Origin: a virus
Taxonomy: Duplodnaviria > Heunggongvirae > Uroviricota > Caudoviricetes
Virus record (IMG/VR): IMGVR_UViG_2585427776_000011
Reading direction: 5' to 3' (one strand)
Length of the DNA stretch: 25,969 nucleotides
The notes beneath the pieces are model-generated. The model was not told the origin of the DNA. It worked only from the letters and a program-made list of their open reading frames with translations, and did not search any database. The position numbers were made by a program, and so were the translations under genes. Of this stretch, positions 11,686-24,907 are shown piece by piece (position 1 is the first letter of the stretch; every line of letters begins with the position of its first letter).

Positions 11686-13437
11686 ATGATTCAGGACGCT
11701 TTTGTGCGCCAGCGTGCGCGGCAACTTTACTGGCAGGGTTATCCGCCCGCAGAAATATCACGTCTGATGGGAATAAACCCGAACACGATTTATGCGTGGA
11801 AAAAACGCGACCAGTGGGATGAAACGCCACCCGTGCAGCGTGTCACGCAGTCCATCGATGCGCGCCTCATCCAGCTCACTGAAAAACAGAATAAAACAGG
11901 TGGTGACTTCAAGGAAATAGACCTGCTGACCCGGCAGCTTAAAAAACTGCATGATGGCCAGCCGGATGCGACGGCCACAGGAAAGAAAGGCCGGGCGAAA
12001 AAACTCAAAAATCATTTCACGCCGGAACAGATTGCCGCACTGCGGGAAAAAATCATCAGCAGGCTGGAGTGGCATCAGCGGGGCTGGTTTGACTCCCTGA
12101 CCCTTTGCAGGGAAGCCGGGATACGTAACAGGATGATCCTGAAATCCCGACAGATTGGGGCGACCTGGTATTTTGCACAGGAAGCACTGCTGATGGCGCT
12201 GCGTGACGATGTGGCGCAACCTTACCAGCGTAACCAGATTTTTTTGTCTGCGTCGCGTCGTCAGGCGTTCCAGTTTAAAAGCATTATTCAGAAGGCCGCG
12301 GCTGAAGTTGATGTGGAGCTGAAAGGGGGCGATAAAATCATCCTCTCAAACGGCGCAGAGCTGCATTTTCTCGGCACTTCTGCTGCGTCGGCACAGTCCT
12401 ATACGGGCAATTTTTATTTTGATGAATTTTTCTGGGTCAGTCGCTTTGCCGAACTGCGCAAGGTGGCTGGCGCTATGGCAACCCTCAGCGGACTGCGGCG
12501 CACCTACTTCTCCACGCCATCCACCGAAACGCACGAGGCATACGCCTACTGGAACGGCGACCGCTGGAACGAGAAAAAGGCCACGCATAAACGCCAGCGT
12601 TTTTCTGTGGACTGGAAAACGCTGCATAACGGGCTTATCTGCCCTGACCGGACGTGGCGGCAAATTGTCACGCTGGAAGATGTGGTTAAACACGGCTGGA
12701 AACACACCGATATCGACGAAATTCGTGATGAAAACACCGAAGACGAGTTCCTCAATCTCTATATGTGTGAGTTTGTCCGCGAAGGGGAATCGGCATTTAA
12801 CCTGAATATCCTGATTGGCTGCGGTGTTGACGGATACGACGACTGGAAAGACTGGAAACCTTTTGCTCCCCGCCCGATGGGGAATCGTCCGGTATGGATT
12901 GGGTATGACGCAAACGGCAGCAGTGGCAACGGGGACAGCGGCGCTGTGTCCGTGGTGGTTCCTCCGGCTGTTCCTGGTGGCCGTTTTCGAACGGTGGAGA
13001 CGCGACGCGTTCAGGGGCTGGAGTTTGAAGAACAGGCCAGAGTCATTGAAGAGTTCACGTGTCGCTACAACGTGGAACACATCGGCATTGATGTGACGGG
13101 CGGGAACGGGGAGGCTGTTTATCAGATAGTGAAGCGGTTTTTCCCTGCTGCTATTCCGTACACCTTCACGCTGTCATCCAAACGGTCGCTGGTACTGAAA
13201 ATGCTGCAAATAATGCGTGCCGGACGGTGGGAATACGATCGCGCCGAACGCGAGCTGGTCGCGGCCTTTAACGCCGTGCGTAAGGTGAAAACACCGGGTG
13301 GCTTTATCACTTACGAAACGGACCGCGCGAGGGGGATCAGCCACGGCGACCTTGCGTGGGCAACCATGCTTGCTGTCATTAACGAACCAATTGGCGGCGA
13401 AGGAGAAAACGAGCGTTTCACGGTTATGGAGTTCTGA
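11686..13437 (+). CDS. P: P2 gpP-like terminase large (ATPase) subunit
   Basis: 583-aa ORF recognised as P2-type terminase ATPase; stop overlaps Q start (ATGA). Confidence 0.93.
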   Translation: MIQDAFVRQRARQLYWQGYPPAEISRLMGINPNTIYAWKKRDQWDETPPVQRVTQSIDARLIQLTEKQNKTGGDFKEIDLLTRQLKKLHDGQPDATATGKKGRAKKLKNHFTPEQIAALREKIISRLEWHQRGWFDSLTLCREAGIRNRMILKSRQIGATWYFAQEALLMALRDDVAQPYQRNQIFLSASRRQAFQFKSIIQKAAAEVDVELKGGDKIILSNGAELHFLGTSAASAQSYTGNFYFDEFFWVSRFAELRKVAGAMATLSGLRRTYFSTPSTETHEAYAYWNGDRWNEKKATHKRQRFSVDWKTLHNGLICPDRTWRQIVTLEDVVKHGWKHTDIDEIRDENTEDEFLNLYMCEFVREGESAFNLNILIGCGVDGYDDWKDWKPFAPRPMGNRPVWIGYDANGSSGNGDSGAVSVVVPPAVPGGRFRTVETRRVQGLEFEEQARVIEEFTCRYNVEHIGIDVTGGNGEAVYQIVKRFFPAAIPYTFTLSSKRSLVLKMLQIMRAGRWEYDRAERELVAAFNAVRKVKTPGGFITYETDRARGISHGDLAWATMLAVINEPIGGEGENERFTVMEF

Positions 13438-14483
13438 TGAGCAGAAAAAATAAAAAAATGCGCATGAGTTCACGCATTGATCTCGCTGATGCGCTCAGGA
13501 AAGAATCATCGCTCAGTGCATTCACATTTGATGGTCCTTATCGCCTGACCGGGCATGACCTGCTGGACAATATGTACTGTGCTGATAACGGGCGATGGTA
13601 TGAAACCCCGGTGGACTGGTACGGTCTGGCAAGAGCCGCCCGGCAAACGTCCTGGCATCAGTCTGCGCTTTACTTTAAGCGCAATGTATTGCTCGGTTGC
13701 TACATCCCGCACCCGCTGCTTTCCCGGCAGGATTTCTCGGCGCTGGCGCTGGACTGGTTTGTGTTCGGTAACGCATTCCTTGAGCTTCGGAGCAATATGC
13801 TCGGCGAACCACTTAAATTACGGCACGCACTGGCGAAATACATGCGACGCGGAAGCGATCTTGAATCATGGTGGTATGTGCAGGATGGCAAGGACGCGTT
13901 TCAGTTTCGCCCTGGCAAAGTGTGCCACCTGATGAATCCGGACATTAACCAGGAAATTTACGGCATGCCGGAATATCTTGGCGCATTACTCTCGGCCAGC
14001 CTGTCTCATTCGGCGGACATGTTCAGAAAATTGTATTACGACAATGGATCCCACGCCGGGTGCATCATCTACATCGGTGCAGCGCAGGTAAACCGCGAAA
14101 GCATGGACTCCCTGAAAGAAACGTTACAGGGTGCGCGTGGTGGTGGTGCGTTTAAAAACGTGCTCATCCATGCGCCCAACGGGGGCAAAGAGGGGGTGCA
14201 AATTTTGCCGTTCCAGCAGATCACCGCAAAGGATGAGTTCATGAATGTTAAGGCGGCATCCCGTGATGATGTGCTGGCTGCGCACCGCGTTCCGCCGCAA
14301 CTGATGGGGGCGATGCCGGGCGAAAAAAGTGCGTTTGGTGATGTGGAGAAGGCCGCGCGGGTTTACGCAATTAACGAGCTGATGCCTGTCATGGAGGCCA
14401 TGAAGCACATCAATGACTGGCTTGGCGAAGAGGTGATCCGCTTTAACCCTTACGCACTGTTAGACACCCAGCCCACATCCTGA
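13437..14483 (+). CDS. Q: P2 gpQ-like portal protein
   Basis: 348-aa ORF following P, portal family by sequence and synteny. Confidence 0.93.
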   Translation: MSRKNKKMRMSSRIDLADALRKESSLSAFTFDGPYRLTGHDLLDNMYCADNGRWYETPVDWYGLARAARQTSWHQSALYFKRNVLLGCYIPHPLLSRQDFSALALDWFVFGNAFLELRSNMLGEPLKLRHALAKYMRRGSDLESWWYVQDGKDAFQFRPGKVCHLMNPDINQEIYGMPEYLGALLSASLSHSADMFRKLYYDNGSHAGCIIYIGAAQVNRESMDSLKETLQGARGGGAFKNVLIHAPNGGKEGVQILPFQQITAKDEFMNVKAASRDDVLAAHRVPPQLMGAMPGEKSAFGDVEKAARVYAINELMPVMEAMKHINDWLGEEVIRFNPYALLDTQPTS

Positions 14484-14907: not shown

Positions 14908-14934
14908 TTGTGCAAATTTGTGCACTATTGTGCA
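14908..14934 (+). promoter_or_regulatory. three helically phased TTGTGCA direct repeats upstream of the accessory operon
   Basis: TTGTGCA at 14908, 14918 and 14928 (10-bp period), with a fourth copy near 14837 and a CGGATCC direct repeat at about 14847-14866. Confidence 0.5.
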
Positions 14935-15013
14935 TTTGTATAGTGAAAAAAATATAGCAGAAAGTATACTTAGCGCCTTGTGGGCTACGTTAACTTTGCA
15001 GGAACATTTGGAA

Positions 15014-16393
15014 ATGAAAAAAATCAATAAAGAAGATTCTAAAAGAACCTTTTTACGTGGATGGTTGCGATTTCTTCGTAGCGTTGAGAGAGCTAAGAAA
15101 AAAAAGCCTGCGCAAGAGAAAAATGGTAGTCTTCGTTTTTCCGATGAAACAACTCCTGTCCAAAACCAAGTCGCTACGTTCATTGAAAATATATCGATTA
15201 TAAAAGAGTATGACTCATCAATTCTTCGTCGTGACGCAGAGAAGATATTAATACCTAAATATTTTGACTTATATGACAATCCAGAGAAATCTCTGCTATT
15301 TATTAGTGCAGCCACAAAATTAATTGCAAGAGGTAAATGGAAATCATATATTTTTGATTACAAGAAAAACAAAAAACACTGTCTTGGTCTTGAGTGTCTA
15401 TTAGGTGTTGCTCTTACAGCAGCAAGGCAAAGTAATATAAATTTCAAAGATACGATGATTCAGATTAATGGTATCTACCCTAAAGATGAACAGTATCTTG
15501 AAATTATCAGGGATGTCGGGCTTGTAAAAGAGATTAGTAATGCTGCACCAGGTAAAGTTCTGGACTCTACTGAAGCATCGAAAAAAGCGAATCCGAAGAA
15601 ACGAATCTTCTCTGCTGATAGTATCGGAAAGGAGAATGCTTCTGCCTTTGCCCATGACAGAAAAAATGTCACTGCTGAAAAATTTACCGCATACATAAAC
15701 GAATGCTTAAATGATCATAATTTAAAACTTGTACATGAGGCAGAAAAGCATTTAACTTCCTGCATGGGGGAACTCCTTGATAATGCGGAGCGGCATTGTG
15801 GGTTAGAGCAACGCCCACGCTGGTATTTGAGAGGTTTTGTTAATAATAACGTACGAAACCCCATATGTGAGTTGGCTGTTTTCAATTTTGGGAAAACTAT
15901 CAGCGAAACTTTTGATAATTTACCTGAGGATCATTTTTCATTAAGTCAACAAGTTAATCCATACATAAATAAGCATATTAAGAAAAAGGGTATGTTTAAG
16001 GAAGGATTAACAACAGTAGCGGCCTTGCAAGGGCGGGTGAGTTGTAAAAACGAGAAAGAAACTGACAGTTCTGGCACCGGAACAATTGAATTATTGAAGT
16101 TATTTCAAGATATGCATGATAATCTTAAAAAAATGGGAAGAGATATTAAAGGTGGGATAAAAATGACTTTAATATCTGGTAGTACTCATATTAACTTTGA
16201 TGGATCATATAAATTAAAGCAAAGGTTGGTTAATGACGAGGAAAGTGACATTTTTACTTACCCTTTTAATGATGTAGGGCTTGAATCTGAACCGGATCGC
16301 AACTATCTTAAGCGTATGAAGGATGCTCGATTTCCTGGAGTTATGATCAATATTCGTTTTCCTCTACCAGAAAACGCCACCCAGCGAACTTGA
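15014..16393 (+). CDS. hypothetical protein with GHKL-type ATPase / anti-sigma-factor serine-kinase-like motif (accessory operon gene 1)
   Basis: ATG 15014 with AGGA RBS; 459 aa, AT-rich codon usage; motif GELLDNAERHCG resembles the N-box (E..NA..H.G) of SpoIIAB/RsbW-type kinases and SSGTGTIELL a G2-like box. Function is inferred, not verified. Confidence 0.75.
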   Translation: MKKINKEDSKRTFLRGWLRFLRSVERAKKKKPAQEKNGSLRFSDETTPVQNQVATFIENISIIKEYDSSILRRDAEKILIPKYFDLYDNPEKSLLFISAATKLIARGKWKSYIFDYKKNKKHCLGLECLLGVALTAARQSNINFKDTMIQINGIYPKDEQYLEIIRDVGLVKEISNAAPGKVLDSTEASKKANPKKRIFSADSIGKENASAFAHDRKNVTAEKFTAYINECLNDHNLKLVHEAEKHLTSCMGELLDNAERHCGLEQRPRWYLRGFVNNNVRNPICELAVFNFGKTISETFDNLPEDHFSLSQQVNPYINKHIKKKGMFKEGLTTVAALQGRVSCKNEKETDSSGTGTIELLKLFQDMHDNLKKMGRDIKGGIKMTLISGSTHINFDGSYKLKQRLVNDEESDIFTYPFNDVGLESEPDRNYLKRMKDARFPGVMINIRFPLPENATQRT

Positions 16394-16403
16394 GGACAGG
16401 TAC

Positions 16404-16748
16404 ATGAAAATGGCTGACATCACCATAGATTTCAATAAGTTAGTAAAAGATAGTAACAAGAAACTTTTTGCTGGACGTTCTAATGGGCGCCAGGCCTATG
16501 ATTACTTTAATATAGGGAAATTTTGCACAACCAGTAATGATAGATTATATCTATTGATCCCCAAGGGAATTGTTGTATCAAGCTCATACTTTCTAGGTAT
16601 GCTTGAAACGGTTTTGCCGAAATTTTCTTCGCCTAGCGAATTTTATAGTCGCACTGTACTTGATGGTCGTGAATATAAAGAAGGTATGCTTTCTGAATTA
16701 GATAGAGCTGTAAGGAGAGGCTTACATAAAAATGTTCCCTTCTTTTAA
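16404..16748 (+). CDS. hypothetical small protein, STAS-like / DUF4325-like (accessory operon gene 2)
   Basis: 114 aa, RBS GAGGA; segment IVVSSSYFLGMLE resembles the serine-containing core of STAS-like domains recalled from memory; sits next to the kinase-like gene. Confidence 0.7.
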   Translation: MKMADITIDFNKLVKDSNKKLFAGRSNGRQAYDYFNIGKFCTTSNDRLYLLIPKGIVVSSSYFLGMLETVLPKFSSPSEFYSRTVLDGREYKEGMLSELDRAVRRGLHKNVPFF

Positions 16749-17541
16749 AAATATTTTTCAAATCAAAATGACAGCGCTGTCTGTCATTTTTTTTATATTC
16801 CCCGCAGCTTGCTCTGTGACAGATTTTTCCAATAAAGAAAACATTGAATGTAATGAGTCACTTTATCCAAACACGCCTTTTTATATTCCCGATTCAGGAC
16901 TTAGTGGTATATCATCACCGTTTTTGTTATCCGGAAACCCGAATGATGGCTTGATGTTTTGTGAAAAGGCAAACGACACCTTTCATAAGTTATCTCTGGC
17001 AAGGGATAACAAAAAAGATTTATTTGCTAATTATTTCAAAGATGTTCCAAATTCCTATGATATATATAATATTGTAAAGGTTCCGGAAAATGGTCCAGAG
17101 TGGATTTCTATTGGCATCTCTTTATTTGCTTTAGTTTCATCCTTTGTTATTCCTTGTGTTCAACATAGAAAAGAACGTAAAGAAGCTATTAATGAAGGGT
17201 ATTGGGTAAGAGAAGTAATTATGCCTAAAATTAATGGGTTGGCATTCGATGTTGTGCAAAGTTTTAAAAACTCCATGGCATTATCAGAAGAGGAGTTTCT
17301 TAGTGTATTCAGTAATACTCTTTTACCAAAACTAGGAGAGTTACGGGATTCATTATATTTGTTTAATAGTTTTCCAGAATTAAATGCAGATATTGAAAAT
17401 CTAGAAAGTATTTGTGACTCCTTGGAGGAAGAAGTTTCCAATCATATAGACTCGCCTAATGAAATAAGAATTTCTGATATATCAATGTTTCATTCCAAAT
17501 TAATACAGAAATTAATTTTACTTCATAAGAAGATAGGTTGA
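16732..17541 (+). CDS. hypothetical membrane protein (accessory operon gene 3)
   Basis: 269 aa; N-terminal hydrophobic signal-like segment MTALSVIFFIFPAAC (lipobox-like Cys) and an internal hydrophobic helix WISIGISLFALVSSFVIPCV; overlaps the end of gene 2. Confidence 0.7.
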   Translation: MFPSFKNIFQIKMTALSVIFFIFPAACSVTDFSNKENIECNESLYPNTPFYIPDSGLSGISSPFLLSGNPNDGLMFCEKANDTFHKLSLARDNKKDLFANYFKDVPNSYDIYNIVKVPENGPEWISIGISLFALVSSFVIPCVQHRKERKEAINEGYWVREVIMPKINGLAFDVVQSFKNSMALSEEEFLSVFSNTLLPKLGELRDSLYLFNSFPELNADIENLESICDSLEEEVSNHIDSPNEIRISDISMFHSKLIQKLILLHKKIG

Positions 17542-17586: not shown

Positions 17587-20319
17587 CTATCGTGTTCGAT
17601 GCAATAAACTGATTTTTTTGCGAGCATGTTTAGTGGTTTCACTGATTCTCTGTGCGTGCTCTGCGTCGCGGATGGCGCGCAGCATGTCAGAAAGTACGGT
17701 AACGGGTGTTTTCATGGTGTTCTGGTCTTGCTGAAGTGTGGATGCCAGGCGTGCGGCGGCTTCAGGGTCTGATGCCTCTAGTTGTTCCAGATAGCTGGCG
17801 ACCGGGTTATGGCGGATCTCCGTGCTGCTTACGCCGTGATTACGACTCAGGCGTTGCCAGAGCTGCGTGATTCGGCTGTCCGGGCGGGTATCCTGTTTGC
17901 GTACAATTTCAAATCCCTGCGGTGCAATGATGCTGCCGCCAACGTACAGACTGCCGCCCCGTAACAGGTGCTGCATCTGCTGTTCACCGATATGCAGGCC
18001 GAGAGATTCAGCAGACTCCCGCCATTCTTTAGCGAGTAACTCGTGGTTATCAGGCAAAGGCTGTGGCTGTTTGCGGCTCTGTGTCCAGTTCTGCATTTCA
18101 TCACTGCTGTTTTTTGCCTGTTTGTCACGCAGCGAACGCATCAGTGCCCGGCGTTCGTGCCGTTTCAGTGAGCGCATCCATTCATTCACGTCAACGCCTT
18201 CAGGAAGCCGCGGCCACGGTGCTGGCCGTTCTTCCGGCTGTTCTGTCCCGTTGTTGTCCGTTTCCTGTACACGGGGACAGTTATTGCCACGAGTCCAAGG
18301 GGCGGCAGGGCCGCCCTGAAGGTCAAAACCATTTTCGCGGGCGCTGTCTTCCGTTTCCGGTTTACGTCTTACCAGTTTCCAGTTATCCGGATGCGTGCAC
18401 ACACGGGAGGATTCCCCGATGAGTGGTGACCAGATCCCGTAAATCTGTACGCTCTGTTCGCCGTAATCATTCAGCTCATCTGCGAGGTCGTAGGCGGTGC
18501 GAATCAGGTAGTCTTTGCGTGGAACAAGTACGCCGCCCTGTTTTTCAATGTAGGTGGCAAAACACCCGGCATCGGCGGCAGCGAGTACCGCATCCATTGC
18601 GTCATCTTTCAGTCGTTGCGGGCCTTCCGGGTTGCGTGCCATCTGGCTGGCAAGGCGGCGCAGTTCACGCCACACCTGACGGGAGGGGATGCCAAAGAAC
18701 TGGAACTGGCGGACCCGATGAAGGCGCGCCCAGCCGATGGCGCGCTCCACACTCTCGGCCATTGATTTTCCGGTTTCGTGGTCAACGCGTGGCTTGCCCG
18801 TTTTCGGGTCGATGCCATCCACGGCGCGGCTGTCCAGGTTCTTTCCGATGTAGGTCGCGATATAGCTGGTTGGTGTGCCTTTTGAGCCGTCGACATACTC
18901 CGCCTTAAAGCGCGGAGTAATATCATTGCCCAGCTCGTGGCGGTCTTCCTGAATGGCAATATCGCGGGTGATGGCCACGATGCTGTCGATTTCTTCCGGA
19001 TGAGCAAAGACCATCATATGCCAGTGCACGGTGCCGTCATGGTGAGGCTCCACCGTGCGGATGCCATACCAGCGAAGACCGTCGCGGTTCAGTTTTTTGC
19101 GGACCGCCGCAAAAAACGTGTTAACCAGGTAATCGCTGGAGTCGCGCATGGTGGCCCCGTTCCATTTGGGATTCGGATGACCGTTCTCTGTTGTGGCGTG
19201 GTATTTTGACGGGCAGGTGACAGTCAGAAACACCGCTTTGTCGCCACGGGCTTCGGCCAGAAGTTCCAGCCCCTTCATGGTGGCCATCATTTCTGCCTTA
19301 CGGTGAACCGGGTTACTTACTCCCGCGTAATACACTGTCTCGAGATCAATCGTGAACCCGTCTTCGTTTTCCAGCATGAAACTTTTCAGGAAATCGCGTG
19401 TTTTCTCGCGCTGTGCGCGAAACTCGCTTAACGCGTCCTGGCTCAGATAGGGCGATGTTTTTCTGGAAACCAGACAGGCGGCGCGGAGTTGTTCTTCCCG
19501 CCACTCGCAACGTAACAGCCACAGTTTGCGTTTCCACCATTCCGCACAGGTCAGGCGAAGGATTGCGCCCGGTAACAGTTCCGTATCCGGATCGCTCTTG
19601 TTCAGAGCTTCGTAATGTGGCGGCATGGTGTGCAGATGTAACGCCATGCGGGCCAGCATCTGATATGCCTTCAGCGTCACCTCCATGGTCAGCTCGCCAT
19701 CTCTGGCACCAAGGCCATCACAGAGTGTTTCGAATGTGCTGCTGAACATCGCCGCCGTCATGGTGGCCAGCGTCTGTATCTGTTGCTTGTTAAGCTGCGG
19801 CAGGTAAAGCAAATCGTCCAGGCGTTCGCGTCCGGCAAGGGCGCGATAACCCGGTGTCAGCCAGCGGCTGTCGGTGTGGTCCAGACGTTCGAATATTTTG
19901 CGCAGGCTTCCGCGCGCGTAGCGTTCTGCCTGCCAGCTCTTTTTGCCTTTCCGGCGATCGGCTTCCTGTTTTTTGCGCAGGAAGGAGAGGTGGCGAATAA
20001 GCGGATCGCGCAGATAGGACGGCAGCAGGCGCAGCGAGGCCATGGCTTCATCCACCGCGCCGCGTGCCTGTTTTCTGGCGTCTCCTGCCAGTGCGATGGT
20101 TTTGTCCTGTTTTTCCTGTGCGTCCAGGCTTTTATTAATCAGGTTGCCCAGCGGCGTGGCGGAGAACGCCGCATCAGCCATTTCCTGGCGGCGCTCGTTC
20201 TCTACCCGGTAGGCATCCAGCCAGGAGGAGAGCGTGGATTCAGGAGCGGGGATCCCCGTTCCTTCACGCCCCACTGCGTGGCGCGGTTGTTGCCAGTCCC
20301 TGATGTACTCTGCCGTCAT
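17587..20319 (-). CDS. A: P2 gpA-like rolling-circle replication initiator (HUH endonuclease)
   Basis: 910-aa ORF with HUH motif HHDGTVHWHMMVF and tyrosine motif SYIATYIGK typical of P2 A / phiX174 A-type initiators. Confidence 0.93.
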   Translation of the reverse strand: MTAEYIRDWQQPRHAVGREGTGIPAPESTLSSWLDAYRVENERRQEMADAAFSATPLGNLINKSLDAQEKQDKTIALAGDARKQARGAVDEAMASLRLLPSYLRDPLIRHLSFLRKKQEADRRKGKKSWQAERYARGSLRKIFERLDHTDSRWLTPGYRALAGRERLDDLLYLPQLNKQQIQTLATMTAAMFSSTFETLCDGLGARDGELTMEVTLKAYQMLARMALHLHTMPPHYEALNKSDPDTELLPGAILRLTCAEWWKRKLWLLRCEWREEQLRAACLVSRKTSPYLSQDALSEFRAQREKTRDFLKSFMLENEDGFTIDLETVYYAGVSNPVHRKAEMMATMKGLELLAEARGDKAVFLTVTCPSKYHATTENGHPNPKWNGATMRDSSDYLVNTFFAAVRKKLNRDGLRWYGIRTVEPHHDGTVHWHMMVFAHPEEIDSIVAITRDIAIQEDRHELGNDITPRFKAEYVDGSKGTPTSYIATYIGKNLDSRAVDGIDPKTGKPRVDHETGKSMAESVERAIGWARLHRVRQFQFFGIPSRQVWRELRRLASQMARNPEGPQRLKDDAMDAVLAAADAGCFATYIEKQGGVLVPRKDYLIRTAYDLADELNDYGEQSVQIYGIWSPLIGESSRVCTHPDNWKLVRRKPETEDSARENGFDLQGGPAAPWTRGNNCPRVQETDNNGTEQPEERPAPWPRLPEGVDVNEWMRSLKRHERRALMRSLRDKQAKNSSDEMQNWTQSRKQPQPLPDNHELLAKEWRESAESLGLHIGEQQMQHLLRGGSLYVGGSIIAPQGFEIVRKQDTRPDSRITQLWQRLSRNHGVSSTEIRHNPVASYLEQLEASDPEAAARLASTLQQDQNTMKTPVTVLSDMLRAIRDAEHAQRISETTKHARKKISLLHRTR

Positions 20320-20325
20320 AGTGAT

Positions 20326-20691
20326 TTACTTCGTCATACCATTCAGGGTGTCGCGGTAGACTGTAGCCAGCCGCTGAATTTCCAGCACGGTGTCTTCTGT
20401 GTCGGCATGGCGATGTGTGATGCGGATGCTGTCGGCAATCACATCGACGATTGCAGAGGATGGGCGCTGGTAAATGCCAATAACGGACGGGGTGCCACCT
20501 TCAATGCGGTAAAGCCTGTAATTTCCCTCGTGGCTGTCAATCATGTAGCGACCATCAATAACAATCTTTCCGTCAGCGAGCTGCGGTACAGGCAGGGATT
20601 TCTGGTACATGTCATAACGATCACGCACGCGAGCGGCAAGATCACGTTCTGTGTTGAGCAGGTATTCAAGAAAGTCGTTGGCGAGAATCAT
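20326..20691 (-). CDS. hypothetical phage protein immediately upstream of A
   Basis: 121-aa ORF with RBS AGAGG; stop 4 nt before the A start. Confidence 0.65.
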   Translation of the reverse strand: MILANDFLEYLLNTERDLAARVRDRYDMYQKSLPVPQLADGKIVIDGRYMIDSHEGNYRLYRIEGGTPSVIGIYQRPSSAIVDVIADSIRITHRHADTEDTVLEIQRLATVYRDTLNGMTK

Positions 20692-20763
20692 TGCGGCAAT
20701 CCTCTTGTTACAGATGTGCGAAGGCCTCCCGCCGCAAGGTGCAGGAAAGGCCCGGAACAGGAA

Positions 20764-20994
20764 TTAATGGAGTTTGTTTTGCTGCTGGATGAGCTGTTGA
20801 AGCTCGTGCAGATCATCCGCCAGATAGCTGAAAACAGAGGCGGAATAAATGTTTGATAGTGCGTGGCTGCGCTCATGCAGCATATTGATGTGCATGATTT
20901 GCGCGACGCGTGATGCGCGGGAAAGTCTGCGGTTGATTTCAGTCTGGATGTGACGACGCTCCGCGATAGCGCGGTGTGGTTTGCGGTTTGCCAT
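20764..20994 (-). CDS. hypothetical phage protein
   Basis: 76-aa ORF with RBS AAGGGG 7 nt before ATG 20994. Confidence 0.6.
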   Translation of the reverse strand: MANRKPHRAIAERRHIQTEINRRLSRASRVAQIMHINMLHERSHALSNIYSASVFSYLADDLHELQQLIQQQNKLH

Positions 20995-21171
20995 GGTGTG
21001 GCCCCTTGTGTAGTAAGTTGTGAAAACTCACCATCCAGAGCTGCGAAACTGTGGGTGGCGAGACGTACGAGGTTCGCAGTACCGGCTACACAAGAACCCG
21101 GCCCGACCGAAGTCGGCCCCGTACGCCCCGCCATAATTCTGACGCGAAAAAAACGTGGCAATACAGTACGC

Positions 21172-21196
21172 ACAAAAAAACCGCTGGCGCGGTTGT
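21172..21196 (-). terminator. intrinsic terminator on minus strand inside the early operon
   Basis: On the minus strand AACCGC-gcca-GCGGTT is followed by TTTTTTTGTG. Confidence 0.5.
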
Positions 21197-21316
21197 GCGC
21201 TTGTGTAGTCAGCAGGCTGCGAAACCCGACACCCGTTTTGTGAGGTGCAGCGGAAATGTAACCTGACTGATTGCGGCATGGCAAGCGGTTTTTTTGTGTG
21301 TGCATGTTCTGGTTTC

Positions 21317-21616
21317 TTACTGGTTCAGAAAAAAATCAAAAACCTTGTCAATGCGTTGCAGCAGCTCTTGCTGTATTGCTTCCGGTGTTTCCGGTTCGCC
21401 TGGCGCCTTCAACGTCGCGCAGAAATCAGCGATTTCATGATGGAGCGTCAGGCGAATGGCAGGAGCCGTGGTACTGGCGTGCTCCAGCTCATCCAGCAGT
21501 GCCAGCACGGCAGACGGCGAGAGCATTGCGCGAAATGCCAGTAATTTTTGAGGCGTTGCCATTCGTTGCAGGGCAAATGCCAGTTCGCGTAGCTTCTGGT
21601 GGTTGATGTTGCTCAT
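21317..21616 (-). CDS. hypothetical phage protein
   Basis: 99-aa ORF; start overlaps upstream stop (ATGA), translationally coupled. Confidence 0.6.
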   Translation of the reverse strand: MSNINHQKLRELAFALQRMATPQKLLAFRAMLSPSAVLALLDELEHASTTAPAIRLTLHHEIADFCATLKAPGEPETPEAIQQELLQRIDKVFDFFLNQ

Positions 21617-21879
21617 GTTCTGGCTTCCTTCAGTAGCTGGTTAAACATGTGAGTAAGTGGATTGCTACACCCGAACGGCATCGGGTTTACGTGGTAAGAA
21701 GCTTGGCCTCCTGTTTTGCGAGCGCGACCACCTGTGCTGCGGTTTGTTCTGATGACTAAGCCGCCACGCCAAAGTCGGCGTAACTCAGCATTAATGGCTG
21801 TGGTTGGAGTATTCAGTGCTGCGGCGATTTCTCCGCCGCTACAACCCTGATGGGTAGCGATGTAGTCCAGAATGGTCAT
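21613..21879 (-). CDS. hypothetical phage protein, possible DNA-binding
   Basis: 88-aa ORF with RBS AGGAG; ATGA coupling with both neighbours; DNA-binding is a guess from basic residues. Confidence 0.6.
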   Translation of the reverse strand: MTILDYIATHQGCSGGEIAAALNTPTTAINAELRRLWRGGLVIRTNRSTGGRARKTGGQASYHVNPMPFGCSNPLTHMFNQLLKEART

Positions 21880-24520: not shown

Positions 24521-24574
24521 AAAGATAACCAAAAGGTTATCTTTGTGCGAGAGGTTAATACTCAAATGGTTATC
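24521..24574. promoter_or_regulatory. operator region between Cox-like gene and C: perfect palindrome plus repeated half-site
   Basis: AAAGATAACC-aaaa-GGTTATCTTT (24521-24544) and another GGTTATCTT at 24565-24573 overlapping the C start. Confidence 0.5.
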
Positions 24575-24907
24575 TTGTCAATAGACTATGCAAAAAAGTT
24601 ACGTCAGATACGTAAGGCGGAAGGGTTAACACAAAAGCAGTTTGCGGATATTACTGGGTTGTCTTTGGCAACCATAAGGAATTACGAATCGGGGCAAAAG
24701 AACGCTAGAGCAAAAATCGTTGAGGCGGTTCTGCAAGTCGATCGCTTTGAAAAATACATGCTGTGGCTAATAAAAGATAAGACGCTACCTGTCGCCGGGC
24801 AGATTGCTCCGGCTCTCTCTCTTGATGGATCTATTCAGTCGGAGGGCGATCAGGTTTCAATCGGTATTACCCAAAAATCACCCCGATCAGGCAGCAATGT
24901 TGGCTGA
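24566..24907 (+). CDS. C: P2 C-type immunity repressor
   Basis: From ATG 24566 (RBS GAGAGG): HTH LTQKQFADITGLSLATIRNYESGQ and ...FEKYMLWL...AGQIAPAL... match the P2 C repressor pattern; the ORF-track start at 24512 is TTG. Confidence 0.88.
   Translation: MVILSIDYAKKLRQIRKAEGLTQKQFADITGLSLATIRNYESGQKNARAKIVEAVLQVDRFEKYMLWLIKDKTLPVAGQIAPALSLDGSIQSEGDQVSIGITQKSPRSGSNVG

Follow-up and report, generated by a model that had tools for sequence, protein, structure and literature searches.

The 322-bp gap at 20995-21316 (minus strand) in the early operon of a P88-like prophage very probably holds an RNA-based regulatory cassette of the P1 c4/P4 CI type. It contains an IsrK-like leader RNA and a C4-type antisense RNA, with loops that match the repeated motifs of the gap; most likely these RNAs shut off the next gene, which encodes a relative of the P4 anti-repressor. 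Both RNA families concerned are already catalogued, and the locus is a clear but ordinary fresh example of a known switch. The window, that is, the whole stretch of 25,969 nucleotides that was analysed (IMG/VR record IMGVR_UViG_2585427776_000011), belongs to a P88-like (Xuanwuvirus) P2-family E. coli prophage. Its DNA is 96-98% identical to Xuanwuvirus-type phage records, it encodes gpA (Pfam Phage_GPA, E = 1e-129), a terminase, a portal protein, Cox and an HTH repressor (about 24566-24907), and the prophage lineage occurs in about a quarter of complete E. coli genomes (1279 of 5426).

The gap lies between the stop of an Ead/Ea22-like gene (21317) and the ATG of a 76-aa gene (20994). The first-pass annotation had marked a noncoding gap of about 320 bp (21000-21316), which is real with these slightly different bounds, and its boundary between early genes and a replication module is correct anatomy, with gpA downstream. 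No tRNA or tmRNA was found in the gap by ARAGORN. The three GenBank/RefSeq records inspected list no RNA feature at this position, so that annotators see an empty gap or spurious ORFs; in the annotation of phage 1720a-02, the anti-repressor CDS is extended over both RNAs.

Two RNA families and their signals

Two Rfam families match the minus strand of the gap in tandem, with the isrK match ending 35 nt ahead of the start of the C4 match. An isrK family match just 5' of C4 is also present in P4, P88, 1720a-02, a Citrobacter phage and E. albertii. The elements, all on the minus strand, are as follows.

21255-21284, minus: promoter-like site for the IsrK-like RNA, -35 TTGCCA (21284-21279), 18-nt spacer, -10 TACATT (21260-21255)
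21174-21248, minus: IsrK-like RNA (Rfam RF01394, 61.9 bits against a gathering threshold of 50, model positions 1-77 of 77), starting with two hairpins, continuing in a single-stranded linker and closing with an intrinsic terminator; bears targets a1 and b1
21217-21223, minus: a1, UUCGCAG, loop sequence of the second IsrK-like hairpin and complement of C4 a'
21200-21208, minus: b1, CUACACAAG, the upstream 10-mer, in the linker ahead of the terminator, complementary to C4 loop b'
21174-21194, minus: intrinsic terminator of the IsrK-like RNA, AACCGC-GCCA-GCGGUU then U7; stem 21194-21179, T-run to 21174
21051-21138, minus: C4-type antisense RNA (Rfam RF01695, 83.2 bits against a gathering threshold of 45, positions 1-87 of 87, E = 3e-15)
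21133-21117 with 21072-21056, minus: C4 closing stem, 17 bp, enclosing the UUCG hairpin and the b' hairpin
21116-21103, minus: C4 UUCG hairpin, CCGAC-UUCG-GUCGG
21086-21094, minus: b', CUUGUGUAG, the C4 loop and "inverted copy", pairs with b1 and b2
21073-21079, minus: a', CUGCGAA, unpaired C4 segment, pairs with a1 and a2
21041-21047, minus: a2, UUCGCAG, separated by a few bases from the 3' side of the C4 closing stem
21013-21005, minus: b2, CUACACAAG, the downstream 10-mer, overlapping the SD AAGGGG (21007-21002) of the 76-aa gene

The minimum-free-energy and centroid folds of the C4-type RNA both equal the family consensus (-47.7 kcal/mol, z = -4.46, with none of 200 shuffles as good), and the second hairpin carries b' in a 12-nt loop and is followed by the single-stranded a' segment. 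The tetraloop hairpin, which the first-pass annotation had read as CCGAC-cgaa-GTCGG near 21104-21117, is present one base away, and a compensatory variant, CCAGC-AUCA-GCUGG, occurs in one specificity type. An AUG is contained in AAUUAUGG, a conserved sequence with which C4 opens at its 5' end.

The intrinsic terminator proposed on the minus strand at 21172-21196 was recovered by a terminator scan and is the terminal hairpin of the Rfam isrK model. The IsrK-like RNA is the equivalent of the 'c4-a1b1' motif and of the P4 seqA leader. Upstream of it, the promoter-like site has 9 of 12 consensus matches, and 7 nt separate its end from the start of the isrK match; its GTTACAyT -10 block is invariant in P88-like loci and retained in the ~70%-identical phage 1720a-02. 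This site may act as a promoter, by analogy with the mapped isrK promoter of Gifsy-1 (PMC4825925). A second promoter-like site past the terminator (TTGCCA-17-AATTAT, 21161-21133) does not qualify as a conserved element: 1720a-02 keeps the flanking RNA elements but has a 12-nt deletion that ruins the spacing of the site.

The reading made from the first pass thus holds in part. Of the two options it offered, that of a small RNA locus is right, the terminator, hairpin and repeats being parts of two known RNA genes. That of a terminator followed by a re-initiation site is incomplete; the terminator is real, but the better promoter-like site lies upstream of it (21284-21255), and the repeats are partners in RNA-RNA pairing and no signals for a restart.

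Pairing partners of the repeats and their covariation

On the minus strand the 10-mer ACTACACAAG occurs at 21005-21014 and 21200-21209, one base away from where the two direct copies had been placed (21004-21013 and 21201-21210). The inverted copy is the 9-mer CTACACAAG at 21086-21094 on the plus strand, and corresponds to the C4 loop b'. Similar GC-rich sequence had been said to follow each 10-mer, a description that fits poorly, as the shared stretch CTnACTACACAAG (13 nt) extends 5' and not 3'. The copy described as immediately preceding the RBS of the 76-aa gene overlaps the SD itself. The number of 10-mers is unremarkable when taken alone, with three matches (at most one mismatch) where chance would give 1.24 +/- 1.09 in 26 kb, and with three reached in 14 of 100 shuffles; what is non-random is that all three fall inside 210 bp and covary across related phages. 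A second repeat set, absent from the first-pass annotation, is formed by TTTCGCAGC, of which the window has just two exact copies (21216-21224 and 21040-21048). This set contains TTCGCAG twice, and the complement CUGCGAA is found in C4 at 21079-21073, giving a1, a2 and a'.

The C4-type RNA therefore carries exact 9-nt and 7-nt complements of target sequences that lie on the same strand, both upstream and downstream of it. The SD AAGGGG lies 7 nt ahead of the ATG at 20994, and opposite its conserved AGAG/AGGG stands the UUCU that flanks b' on the 5' side and never varies.

Conservation analysis in related prophages shows that the repeats covary three ways over 33 distinct loci representing at least 12 specificity types. 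In these sequences, the positions of a'/b' and a1/b1 are paired in 99.8% of cases, and 12 of the 16 pairs show changes on both sides; for a'/b' and a2/b2 the figures are 96.2% and 10 of 16. For the individual blocks, the pairs changed on both sides and the percentages paired are 5 of 7 and 100% for a1-a', 7 of 9 and 99.7% for b1-b', 4 of 7 and 97.8% for a2-a', and 6 of 9 and 94.9% for b2-b'. Slid alignments gave only 31-57% pairing, and none of 500 shuffles reached the covariation score. The complementary blocks are exact and at fixed positions in every specificity type, and it is on these six blocks that variation centres, with 0.73 bits per column against 0.15. In the few cases where a change is one-sided or departs from Watson-Crick pairing, the result is a G-U pair in the minus-strand RNA, which points to RNA pairing and not to DNA sites. 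Predicted duplex energies average about -32 kcal/mol for cognate and -20 kcal/mol for non-cognate combinations, and serve as supporting evidence only; the high scores of some non-cognate duplexes come from a or b cassettes common to different types and from the inclusion of GC-rich stem flanks.

Specificity was also compared with that of P4-like satellites. In 80 P4-like loci the a'/b' sequences fall into 13 types, and no a', no b' and no combination of both is shared between these and the P88-like types. A pattern scan of IMG/VR for the specificity of the window itself returned P88-like contexts only. Cross-talk with P4-like satellites was accordingly rejected, and there is no evidence in these sets for the C4 of this prophage targeting satellites. 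When more distant epsilon-like/C4 contexts were sought, a scan of genome contigs gave a single locus, in E. albertii, and a profile scan of viral contigs gave the same 80 loci again.

A putative switch on an epsilon-like gene and the alternatives

The genes and frames downstream of the RNAs, again on the minus strand, are as follows.

20764-20994, minus: 76-aa gene, presumed regulated target (Pfam PF25738 'Derepression', 32.5 bits against a cutoff of 27)
20688-21134, minus: 148-codon frame, the 3' part of a 205-aa ORF, uncertain; starts at the AUG of AAUUAUGG at the C4 5' end
20326-20691, minus: 121-aa ORF, downstream in the same transcription unit
17587-20319, minus: 910-aa replication endonuclease gpA (Phage_GPA match as above; PHROG 3237)

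The 76-aa protein also matches PHROG 3688 (E = 1e-46), is named 'derepression protein' in RefSeq, and aligns with P4 epsilon at 29% identity over 66 aa (pairwise E = 4e-9). On sequence grounds, it is homologous to epsilon, the helper-derepression (anti-repressor) protein of P4, and an anti-repressor function is predicted on the strength of that 29% identity. The 121-aa protein, in turn, has no homology to P4 orf151 (best pairwise E-value 0.17).

We infer RNA processing, repression in vivo and a decoy role in the following scheme. The promoter at 21284-21255 would start the IsrK-like RNA, most transcripts would stop at the terminator (21194-21174) and some would read through, with transcripts from an upstream early promoter also entering here. 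A C4-type RNA of ~77 nt, within 21138-21051, would be excised from the read-through RNA, as C4 RNAs are by RNase P, and its a' (CUGCGAA) and loop b' (CUUGUGUAG, with the conserved UUCU flank) would pair with a2 (UUCGCAG) and b2 (CUACACAAG) just downstream. The resulting duplex would cover the SD of the epsilon-like gene and block its translation, and loss of transcription-translation coupling would then reduce the output of the 121-aa gene and of replication gene A; such polarity on the unit at 17587-20691 is suggested by the operon layout. The IsrK-like RNA, bearing the decoys a1 and b1, would compete for C4 in cis (read-through RNA) or in trans (short RNA) and may thereby set the threshold of the switch. 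Since pairing rests on only ~16 nt, the cassette would define a specificity (immunity) type, and at least 12 such types are present among phages that are otherwise nearly identical. Folding of the full leader pairs a1/b1 with a'/b' in cis (z = -3.3), resembling the experimentally probed IsrK-orf45 helix of Gifsy-1 (PMC4825925). In the minimum-free-energy fold of the full read-through RNA the SD is unpaired, and repression would therefore depend on C4 that acts in trans or has first been processed. A block of the ribosome-binding site of an anti-repressor operon by C4 is known from P1/P7 (PMC12197685), and the IsrK-C4 pair is the immunity system of P4, P1, P7 and N15 (PMC3632133, PMC4825925, PMC2864571).

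The same two RNAs could instead operate mainly as in P4, with C4 pairing on the nascent transcript at a1/b1 and a2/b2 and causing premature termination, at the IsrK-like terminator and/or at Rho-dependent sites downstream. The primary output would then be a block of gene A and not of 76-aa translation, a course that we consider quite possible, if somewhat short of probable. P4 has the same isrK-plus-C4 arrangement by Rfam, and its CI RNA, whose effect there is premature termination of transcription and not a plain RBS block, is given a termination role via seqA and seqC in the P4 literature (summarised in PMC4825925 and PMC3632133). The intrinsic terminator directly after b1, and gene A downstream in the same unit, are likewise in keeping with termination, but the location of b2 on the SD of the first downstream gene is the hallmark of a P1-type translational block. 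The two modes are not mutually exclusive; in P1, Biere et al. are said to have reported in 1992 that the translational block itself is then followed by Rho-dependent termination. A logic of the Gifsy-1 type, in which the read-through RNA is inert through intramolecular pairing, the short IsrK-like RNA opens it in trans, and the epsilon-like gene is switched ON under stress to trigger induction, is in our view rather unlikely. At the homologous Gifsy-1 locus, IsrK activates anrP translation 100- to 170-fold, as supported by compensatory mutations, the measured output being activation by short IsrK and not repression by the C4-like RNA, and a constitutive C4-like species gave no relief of IsrK toxicity (PMC4825925). 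In addition, P88 phage was obtained following mitomycin C treatment (PMC5285337), yet the LexA-box pattern has no match near the module, its sole match in the window falling within gpA, so that another trigger would be needed. Nevertheless, the predicted cis structure here leaves the SD of the 76-aa gene free, and the tight b2-b' covariation fits C4-target and not IsrK-target pairing, because IsrK has the same sense sequence as b2.

A plain operon boundary, with early transcription ending at the terminator, an internal promoter serving the replication module afresh and repeats of no significance, would accommodate the terminator, the two promoter-like sites and a raw 10-mer count that is not significant by itself. 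It is highly improbable in view of two curated RNA families above threshold, three-way compensatory covariation over at least 12 types, and the loss of spacing at the promoter-like site past the terminator in 1720a-02, where the RNAs are kept. It is equally hard to credit that the repeats, two direct and one inverted, are DNA sites (operators or iterons) for a co-evolving sequence-specific protein. Three co-changing copies would also be expected for a variable DNA-binding protein, but the inverted copy coincides exactly with the loop of an RNA hairpin that is strongly predicted and conserved in the family, and the imperfect repeats are G-U-compatible only on the minus-strand RNA. Moreover, the a and b repeats form two independent sets that are combined in different ways, always at the same places in the structure, and no candidate for a cognate variable protein was identified.

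The last alternative, that the gap is coding, concerns the 205-aa ORF (21305-20688), which the first-pass annotation had dismissed as spurious, or its 148-codon 3' part. The dismissal is supported as regards a protein product, through overlap, absence of amino-acid selection and natural breaks, but the 148 codons at the 3' end are oddly stop-free. The promoter and the IsrK-like RNA fall within the first 57 codons of the ORF. The remainder runs out of frame over the whole of the 76-aa gene, which has Pfam support, to a TGA that shares bases with the ATG of the 121-aa gene (ATGA), and a junction of this kind with the next gene is seen in two downstream contexts that differ from each other. Of 33 distinct sequences spanning the gap, 28 keep the frame open there, and all 36 distinct sequences of the 76-aa gene keep it open across that gene; given the protein sequence, the probability of no stop is 0.089 and 0.015 for two alleles, which makes the absence of stops in the 148-codon frame mildly unexpected. 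Synonymous to non-synonymous counts are 28:81 in this frame, the same as in the non-coding third frame (25:84) and worse than in the 76-aa frame (40:69). This test covers close relatives only, since the wider scans gave only the E. albertii locus and the same 80 loci. The predicted product is of low complexity, and the ORF is truncated to 16-143 codons in six natural variants. A real protein is therefore improbable. Translation through the 148-codon stretch may nevertheless occur, as translation through the equivalent stretch has been shown for orf45 of Gifsy-1 (PMC4825925).

Relation to known systems and significance

With the RNA-based cassette as the preferred reading, one close parallel is the P4 immunity region, which consists of the PLE leader with seqA, the CI RNA with seqB, seqC and then epsilon, orf151 and alpha. 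Both loci have the same Rfam families in the same order (60.8 bits for isrK and 74.9 bits for C4 in P4), upstream and downstream target copies at comparable distances, combinatorial a/b types, an epsilon-family gene followed by a replication gene, and a long open frame from the C4 5' AUG to the start of the downstream gene. They differ in that P4 is a satellite with the alpha primase, whereas the element described here is a complete P2-family phage with the gpA endonuclease, terminase and portal. P4 also has ~245 nt between CI and epsilon, whereas here epsilon comes first after C4, with b2 on the SD. With its structural genes and gpA, the prophage is not a P4-like element, although the module would work like the P4 system. 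Unlike P4, the phage also has a protein repressor and Cox, so that the RNA is not the sole determinant of immunity. The P2 and 186 early regions contain no isrK or C4 match by Rfam, and the module is therefore not general to the P2 family.

The c4 arrangement of the P1/P7 immI operon was reportedly described by Citron & Schuster in 1990. It shares with the present locus, where processing, control of the target and heteroimmunity are predicted, a C4-family RNA processed from the transcript of its target, with a'/b' matching a1/b1 upstream and a2/b2 downstream, a b2 that covers the RBS of the first downstream gene, control of an anti-repressor-type gene, and specificity differences leading to heteroimmunity (PMC12197685). 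Here, however, the target is a P4-epsilon homologue and not Icd/Ant, and the cassette is found within the early lytic operon, ahead of a replication gene, and not in an immunity operon of its own. The downstream proteins have no match to the Icd/Ant family, and match the Derepression family and PHROG 3237 instead. The resemblance to the P1 immI operon is one of mechanism only.

The isrK-orf45(STnc1160)-anrP locus of Gifsy-1 and Stx/other lambdoid loci form a third group, with ~70% nucleotide similarity to the present locus across isrK, C4 and target (Stx, 1720a-02) and, in 1720a-02, the same two Rfam families. IsrK of Gifsy-1 has its own promoter and a leaky terminator, and its pairing with the C4 region forms a 30-nt cis helix (PMC4825925), features that are predicted here; an AUG at the C4 5' edge opens a frame running to the next gene in both. 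The Gifsy-1 target differs, being the lambdoid anti-repressor AnrP acting on an anti-terminator pathway, and orf45 comprises 45 codons and abuts anrP, whereas the frame here has 148 codons and overlaps the whole epsilon-like gene. In terms of structure, the locus is an instance of both the 'c4 antisense RNA' (RF01695) and 'c4-a1b1' motifs of Weinberg et al. 2010, without structural difference, and both motifs were listed there for Proteobacteria and phages (PMC2864571). No description of a P2-family context with an epsilon-like target of the c4/isrK pair was found in the literature searched.

A tentative possibility is that of a second, RNA-based checkpoint for immunity and induction in the early lytic operon of a P2-family helper-type phage, gating an epsilon-type anti-repressor and gpA. 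Its interchangeable cassettes would constitute heteroimmunity groups, its ancestry would be shared with the P4 module, and the 148-codon stop-free frame would couple ribosomes to the replication genes. Current understanding is not overturned by the locus. Recognising the module explains the gap and predicts cross-immunity at the RNA level among prophages, and the module, with no LexA box nearby, is a candidate control point for the induction of P88-like phages. Finally, a module that joins an antisense RNA to epsilon is homologous between a helper-type P2-family phage and its satellite P4, which bears on the exchange of regulatory parts between satellites and helpers.

Two RNA families in the early-operon gap

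The minus-strand early operon carries, in order, a Cox-like gene, several small ORFs, MarR-like and Ead/Ea22-like genes, a gap, the 76-aa and 121-aa genes and gpA, with the integrase and HTH repressor on the opposite strand. Searching the whole window against Rfam at gathering threshold returned two families, whose minus-strand matches both fall within the gap; they bear out the small RNA locus proposed as one option in the first-pass annotation. No tRNA or tmRNA was found.

Features of the early operon and flanking region
21613-21879, minus, MarR-like gene
21317-21616, minus, Ead/Ea22-like gene
20995-21316, minus, gap between the Ead/Ea22-like and 76-aa genes
21248-21174, minus, isrK (RF01394), 61.9 bits against a gathering threshold of 50
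21138-21051, minus, C4 antisense RNA (RF01695), full length, 83.2 bits against a gathering threshold of 45
20688-21134, minus, 148-codon frame from the AUG of conserved AAUUAUGG (21134), within the C4 5' end
20764-20994, minus, 76-aa gene
20326-20691, minus, 121-aa gene
17587-20319, minus, replication endonuclease gpA
13437-14483, portal gene

The isolated C4 sequence folds as the family consensus (-47.7 kcal/mol, z = -4.46): in the predicted structure a 17-bp closing stem is joined by a UUCG hairpin and by another hairpin whose loop is 12 nt long, and one segment is left unpaired. Structures recognised earlier fall into place within these RNAs: the terminator (stem 21194-21179 plus T-run) ends the IsrK-like RNA, and C4 has CCGAC-UUCG-GUCGG (21116-21103) as its UUCG hairpin. 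The 10-mer ACTACACAAG does have two minus-strand copies, at 21005-21014 and 21200-21209, one nucleotide from the positions first reported, and its inverted copy is a 9-mer at 21086-21094. The number of copies in the 26-kb window (three versus 1.24 expected, a count reached in 14 of 100 shuffles) is not significant, and the motif counts as real because the copies cluster within 210 bp and because of the comparative evidence. The inverted copy is the C4 loop (b'), one direct copy (b1) belongs to the IsrK-like RNA, where it lies in the single-stranded linker, and the other (b2) overlaps the Shine-Dalgarno AAGGGG of the 76-aa gene. A second repeat set, previously missed, consists of TTTCGCAGC at 21216-21224 and 21040-21048, with no other exact copy in the window, and its complement CUGCGAA at 21079-21073. 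These provide a1 in the loop of the second IsrK-like hairpin, a' in the unpaired C4 segment and a2 just 3' of C4. The a1/b1, a'/b', a2/b2 layout defines the P1/P7 c4 and P4 seqA, seqB(CI), seqC systems (PMC2864571, PMC3632133, PMC4825925, PMC12197685). The gap element is a C4/CI-type antisense RNA with an IsrK/seqA-type leader, a well-understood kind.

The E. coli RefSeq and P88 records that were inspected (L001, L002) show no RNA feature at the module, and the P88 record places a 62-aa 'hypothetical protein' antisense to the stretch that holds both RNAs. In the P4 record (L004:8168-8584) the CI RNA is still covered by a CDS for a 137-aa 'cI gene product', and in phage 1720a-02 the 'putative antirepressor' CDS (L003:2941-3804) is extended upstream across both RNAs.

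Covariation of the antisense module across relatives

Comparison with related loci, suggested as a check in the first-pass annotation, covered 80 IMG/VR loci encoding the 76-aa protein together with P88, a Citrobacter Xuanwuvirus, an E. albertii prophage, lambdoid phage 1720a-02 and P4. The module is present in every P88-like locus, and its targets covary. Six short hypervariable blocks, which coincide exactly with a1, b1, b', a', a2 and b2, stand in near-invariant surroundings (mean column entropy 0.73 bits within the blocks versus 0.15 outside), and at least 12 specificity types occur, each with complements at constant positions. Among 33 distinct sequences, a'/b' is 99.8% paired with a1/b1, both partners having changed in 12 of 16 pairs, and 96.2% paired with a2/b2, where this holds for 10 of 16; moving the partners by 1-3 columns reduces pairing to 31-57%. 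The covariation score was reached by none of 500 shuffles, a significance that is overstated as the sequences are close relatives, but kinship does not affect the slid control or the number of independent pair types (up to four per pair). The rare one-sided or non-Watson-Crick changes are G-U pairs when read on minus-strand RNA, which argues for RNA-RNA pairing on that strand and against repeated DNA sites. Both P88-like phages and P4-like satellites carry the a and b cassettes in combinatorial arrangements, and the natural covariation of the module is unusually clean.

In one compared locus (L075:77-391, IMGVR_UViG_2582580934_000004), a 17-nt C4 insertion creates two tandem b' loops with a CCGG arm in common, one of the window type and the other of the type found in locus L031, with targets of the window type only. 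Recombination, dual specificity of the RNA or an error of assembly may account for this variant.

Escherichia phages of the P88/Xuanwuvirus group (Peduoviridae) are 96-98% identical to the window over the probed kilobase, an E. coli O139:H1 P15-25 prophage is 100% identical, and related DNA is present in 1279 of 5426 complete E. coli genomes. Between the portal gene and gpA, ORFs of 491, 114 and 269 aa (14918-17541, plus strand) occupy the site of old/tin in P2 and of ParM/partition genes in other P88-like phages; they have no match in Pfam or PADLOC, and could represent a defence system or cargo that is uncharacterised.

Proposed control and the overlapping reading frame

The last base of a promoter-like site, TTGCCA-18-TACATT (21284-21255), lies 7 nt upstream of where the isrK match starts, and the diverged 1720a-02 retains the -10 block of this site; by analogy with the promoter mapped in Gifsy-1, the site probably drives the IsrK-like RNA. 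The terminator of this RNA would stop most transcripts, and C4 would be carried by read-through transcripts and by those of the upstream early promoter, presumably to be excised from the longer RNA as in P1 and P4. Pairing of C4 with a2/b2 would cover the Shine-Dalgarno sequence of the epsilon-like 76-aa gene and block its translation, and with coupling lost, less transcription would reach the 121-aa gene and gene A; the IsrK-like RNA would carry a decoy copy of the C4 targets. In the predicted fold of the whole leader, a1/b1 is paired with a'/b' in cis (z = -3.3), a pairing whose Gifsy-1 counterpart was probed experimentally. Within this same system the dominant effect in vivo could be the translational block, as in P1, antisense-promoted termination, as in P4, or IsrK-mediated activation, as in Gifsy-1. 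No LexA box was found near the module.

A second promoter-like site, TTGCCA-17-AATTAT (21133-21161, minus), has a -10 overlapping the conserved AAUUAU at the C4 5' edge, and is probably not a promoter, its spacing not being conserved in 1720a-02; the conserved AAUUAUGG at this edge may instead serve processing or translation initiation. The module also contains a 21-nt inverted repeat (21281-21301 versus 21168-21188, 90% complementary). The A-rich ACACAAAAAAACCGCUUGC, which directly precedes the -35, is able to base-pair with the U-tract and 3' half of the IsrK-like terminator, and could be an anti-terminator for transcripts from the early promoter or simply a UP-element-like A-tract. The conserved module starts exactly at this A-rich stretch, even where the upstream gene differs.

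The 205-aa ORF overlapping the gap (21305-20688), earlier called likely spurious, is indeed not credible as a protein. Its predicted product is low-complexity. The IsrK-like RNA and the promoter-like site before it lie within the first 57 codons, and further on the ORF overlaps, in another phase, the 76-aa gene, which has Pfam support. Synonymous and non-synonymous changes in the ORF number 28:81, as against 25:84 in the non-coding third frame and 40:69 in the 76-aa frame. Its 148-codon 3' part is, however, oddly open. This frame extends out of phase past the entire 76-aa gene, its TGA overlapping the ATG of the 121-aa gene (ATGA), and it is without stops in all 36 distinct 76-aa-gene sequences (chance, given the protein sequence, 0.089 and 0.015 for the two alleles). 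The arrangement occurs in 77 of 84 loci (P88-like, except lambdoid 1720a-02), in two different downstream contexts, and the AUG offset from the IsrK start, +115 versus +107 and +120 in Gifsy-1, approximately matches the translated orf45. However, the frame shows no amino-acid-level selection, and natural variants shortened to 16-143 codons (loci L027, L069, L081, L205, L054 and L123) count against a required function. The equivalent frame stops just past the epsilon start codon in P4 and is fused to the anti-repressor in 1720a-02. Translation through the 148-codon frame is possible but unproven.

Relation to P4, lambdoid and P2-like systems

The P4 immunity region has the same two Rfam families in the same order (isrK, 60.8 bits at 8692-8615; C4, 74.9 bits at 8507-8420). 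The next gene in the P4 operon encodes epsilon, the helper-derepression protein, and the 76-aa protein is likewise a member of Pfam family PF25738 (32.5 bits, cutoff 27), with 29% identity to P4 epsilon over 66 residues (pairwise E = 4e-9); the 121-aa protein has no similarity to P4 orf151. The 80 P4-like satellite loci from IMG/VR (L124-L203), whose epsilon genes are 70-99% identical (78 of 80 at least 96%), display 13 combinations of a' and b' alleles, mirroring the cassette exchange of P88-like phages. No a'/b' type is common to the P88-like C4 RNAs and the 80 P4-like CI RNAs, and the window's own specificity was not found in IMG/VR outside a P88-like context.

Stx-converting and other lambdoid phages carry a stretch approximately 70% identical to the window's isrK, C4 and target; in the one inspected, 1720a-02, an anti-repressor gene comes next. 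This stretch is the locus studied in Gifsy-1 as isrK-orf45-anrP, where IsrK pairs with STnc1160, a processed species of approximately 80 nt downstream of IsrK that was likened by the authors to P4 CI RNA (PMC4825925).

The epsilon-like protein (loci L108, L112 and L204; L086, L093 and L103) occurs as two alleles of approximately 70% identity that differ mainly in residues 21-65, and also as a variant with an 18-residue N-terminal deletion. Its variable central part might follow the specificity of the repressor.

Neither isrK nor C4 RNA is present in the early regions of P2 and 186, and the module therefore belongs to the P88-like lineage and not to the whole P2 family. In the literature, the IsrK-C4 system is described for P4, P1, P7, N15 and lambdoid prophages; no report tying it to P2-like phages, Xuanwuvirus or a 'derepression protein' was found, which is weak evidence as subscription journals were mostly outside coverage. 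None of the literature found describes the present context: a P2-family phage in which a P4-epsilon homologue is the first target and gene A lies downstream.
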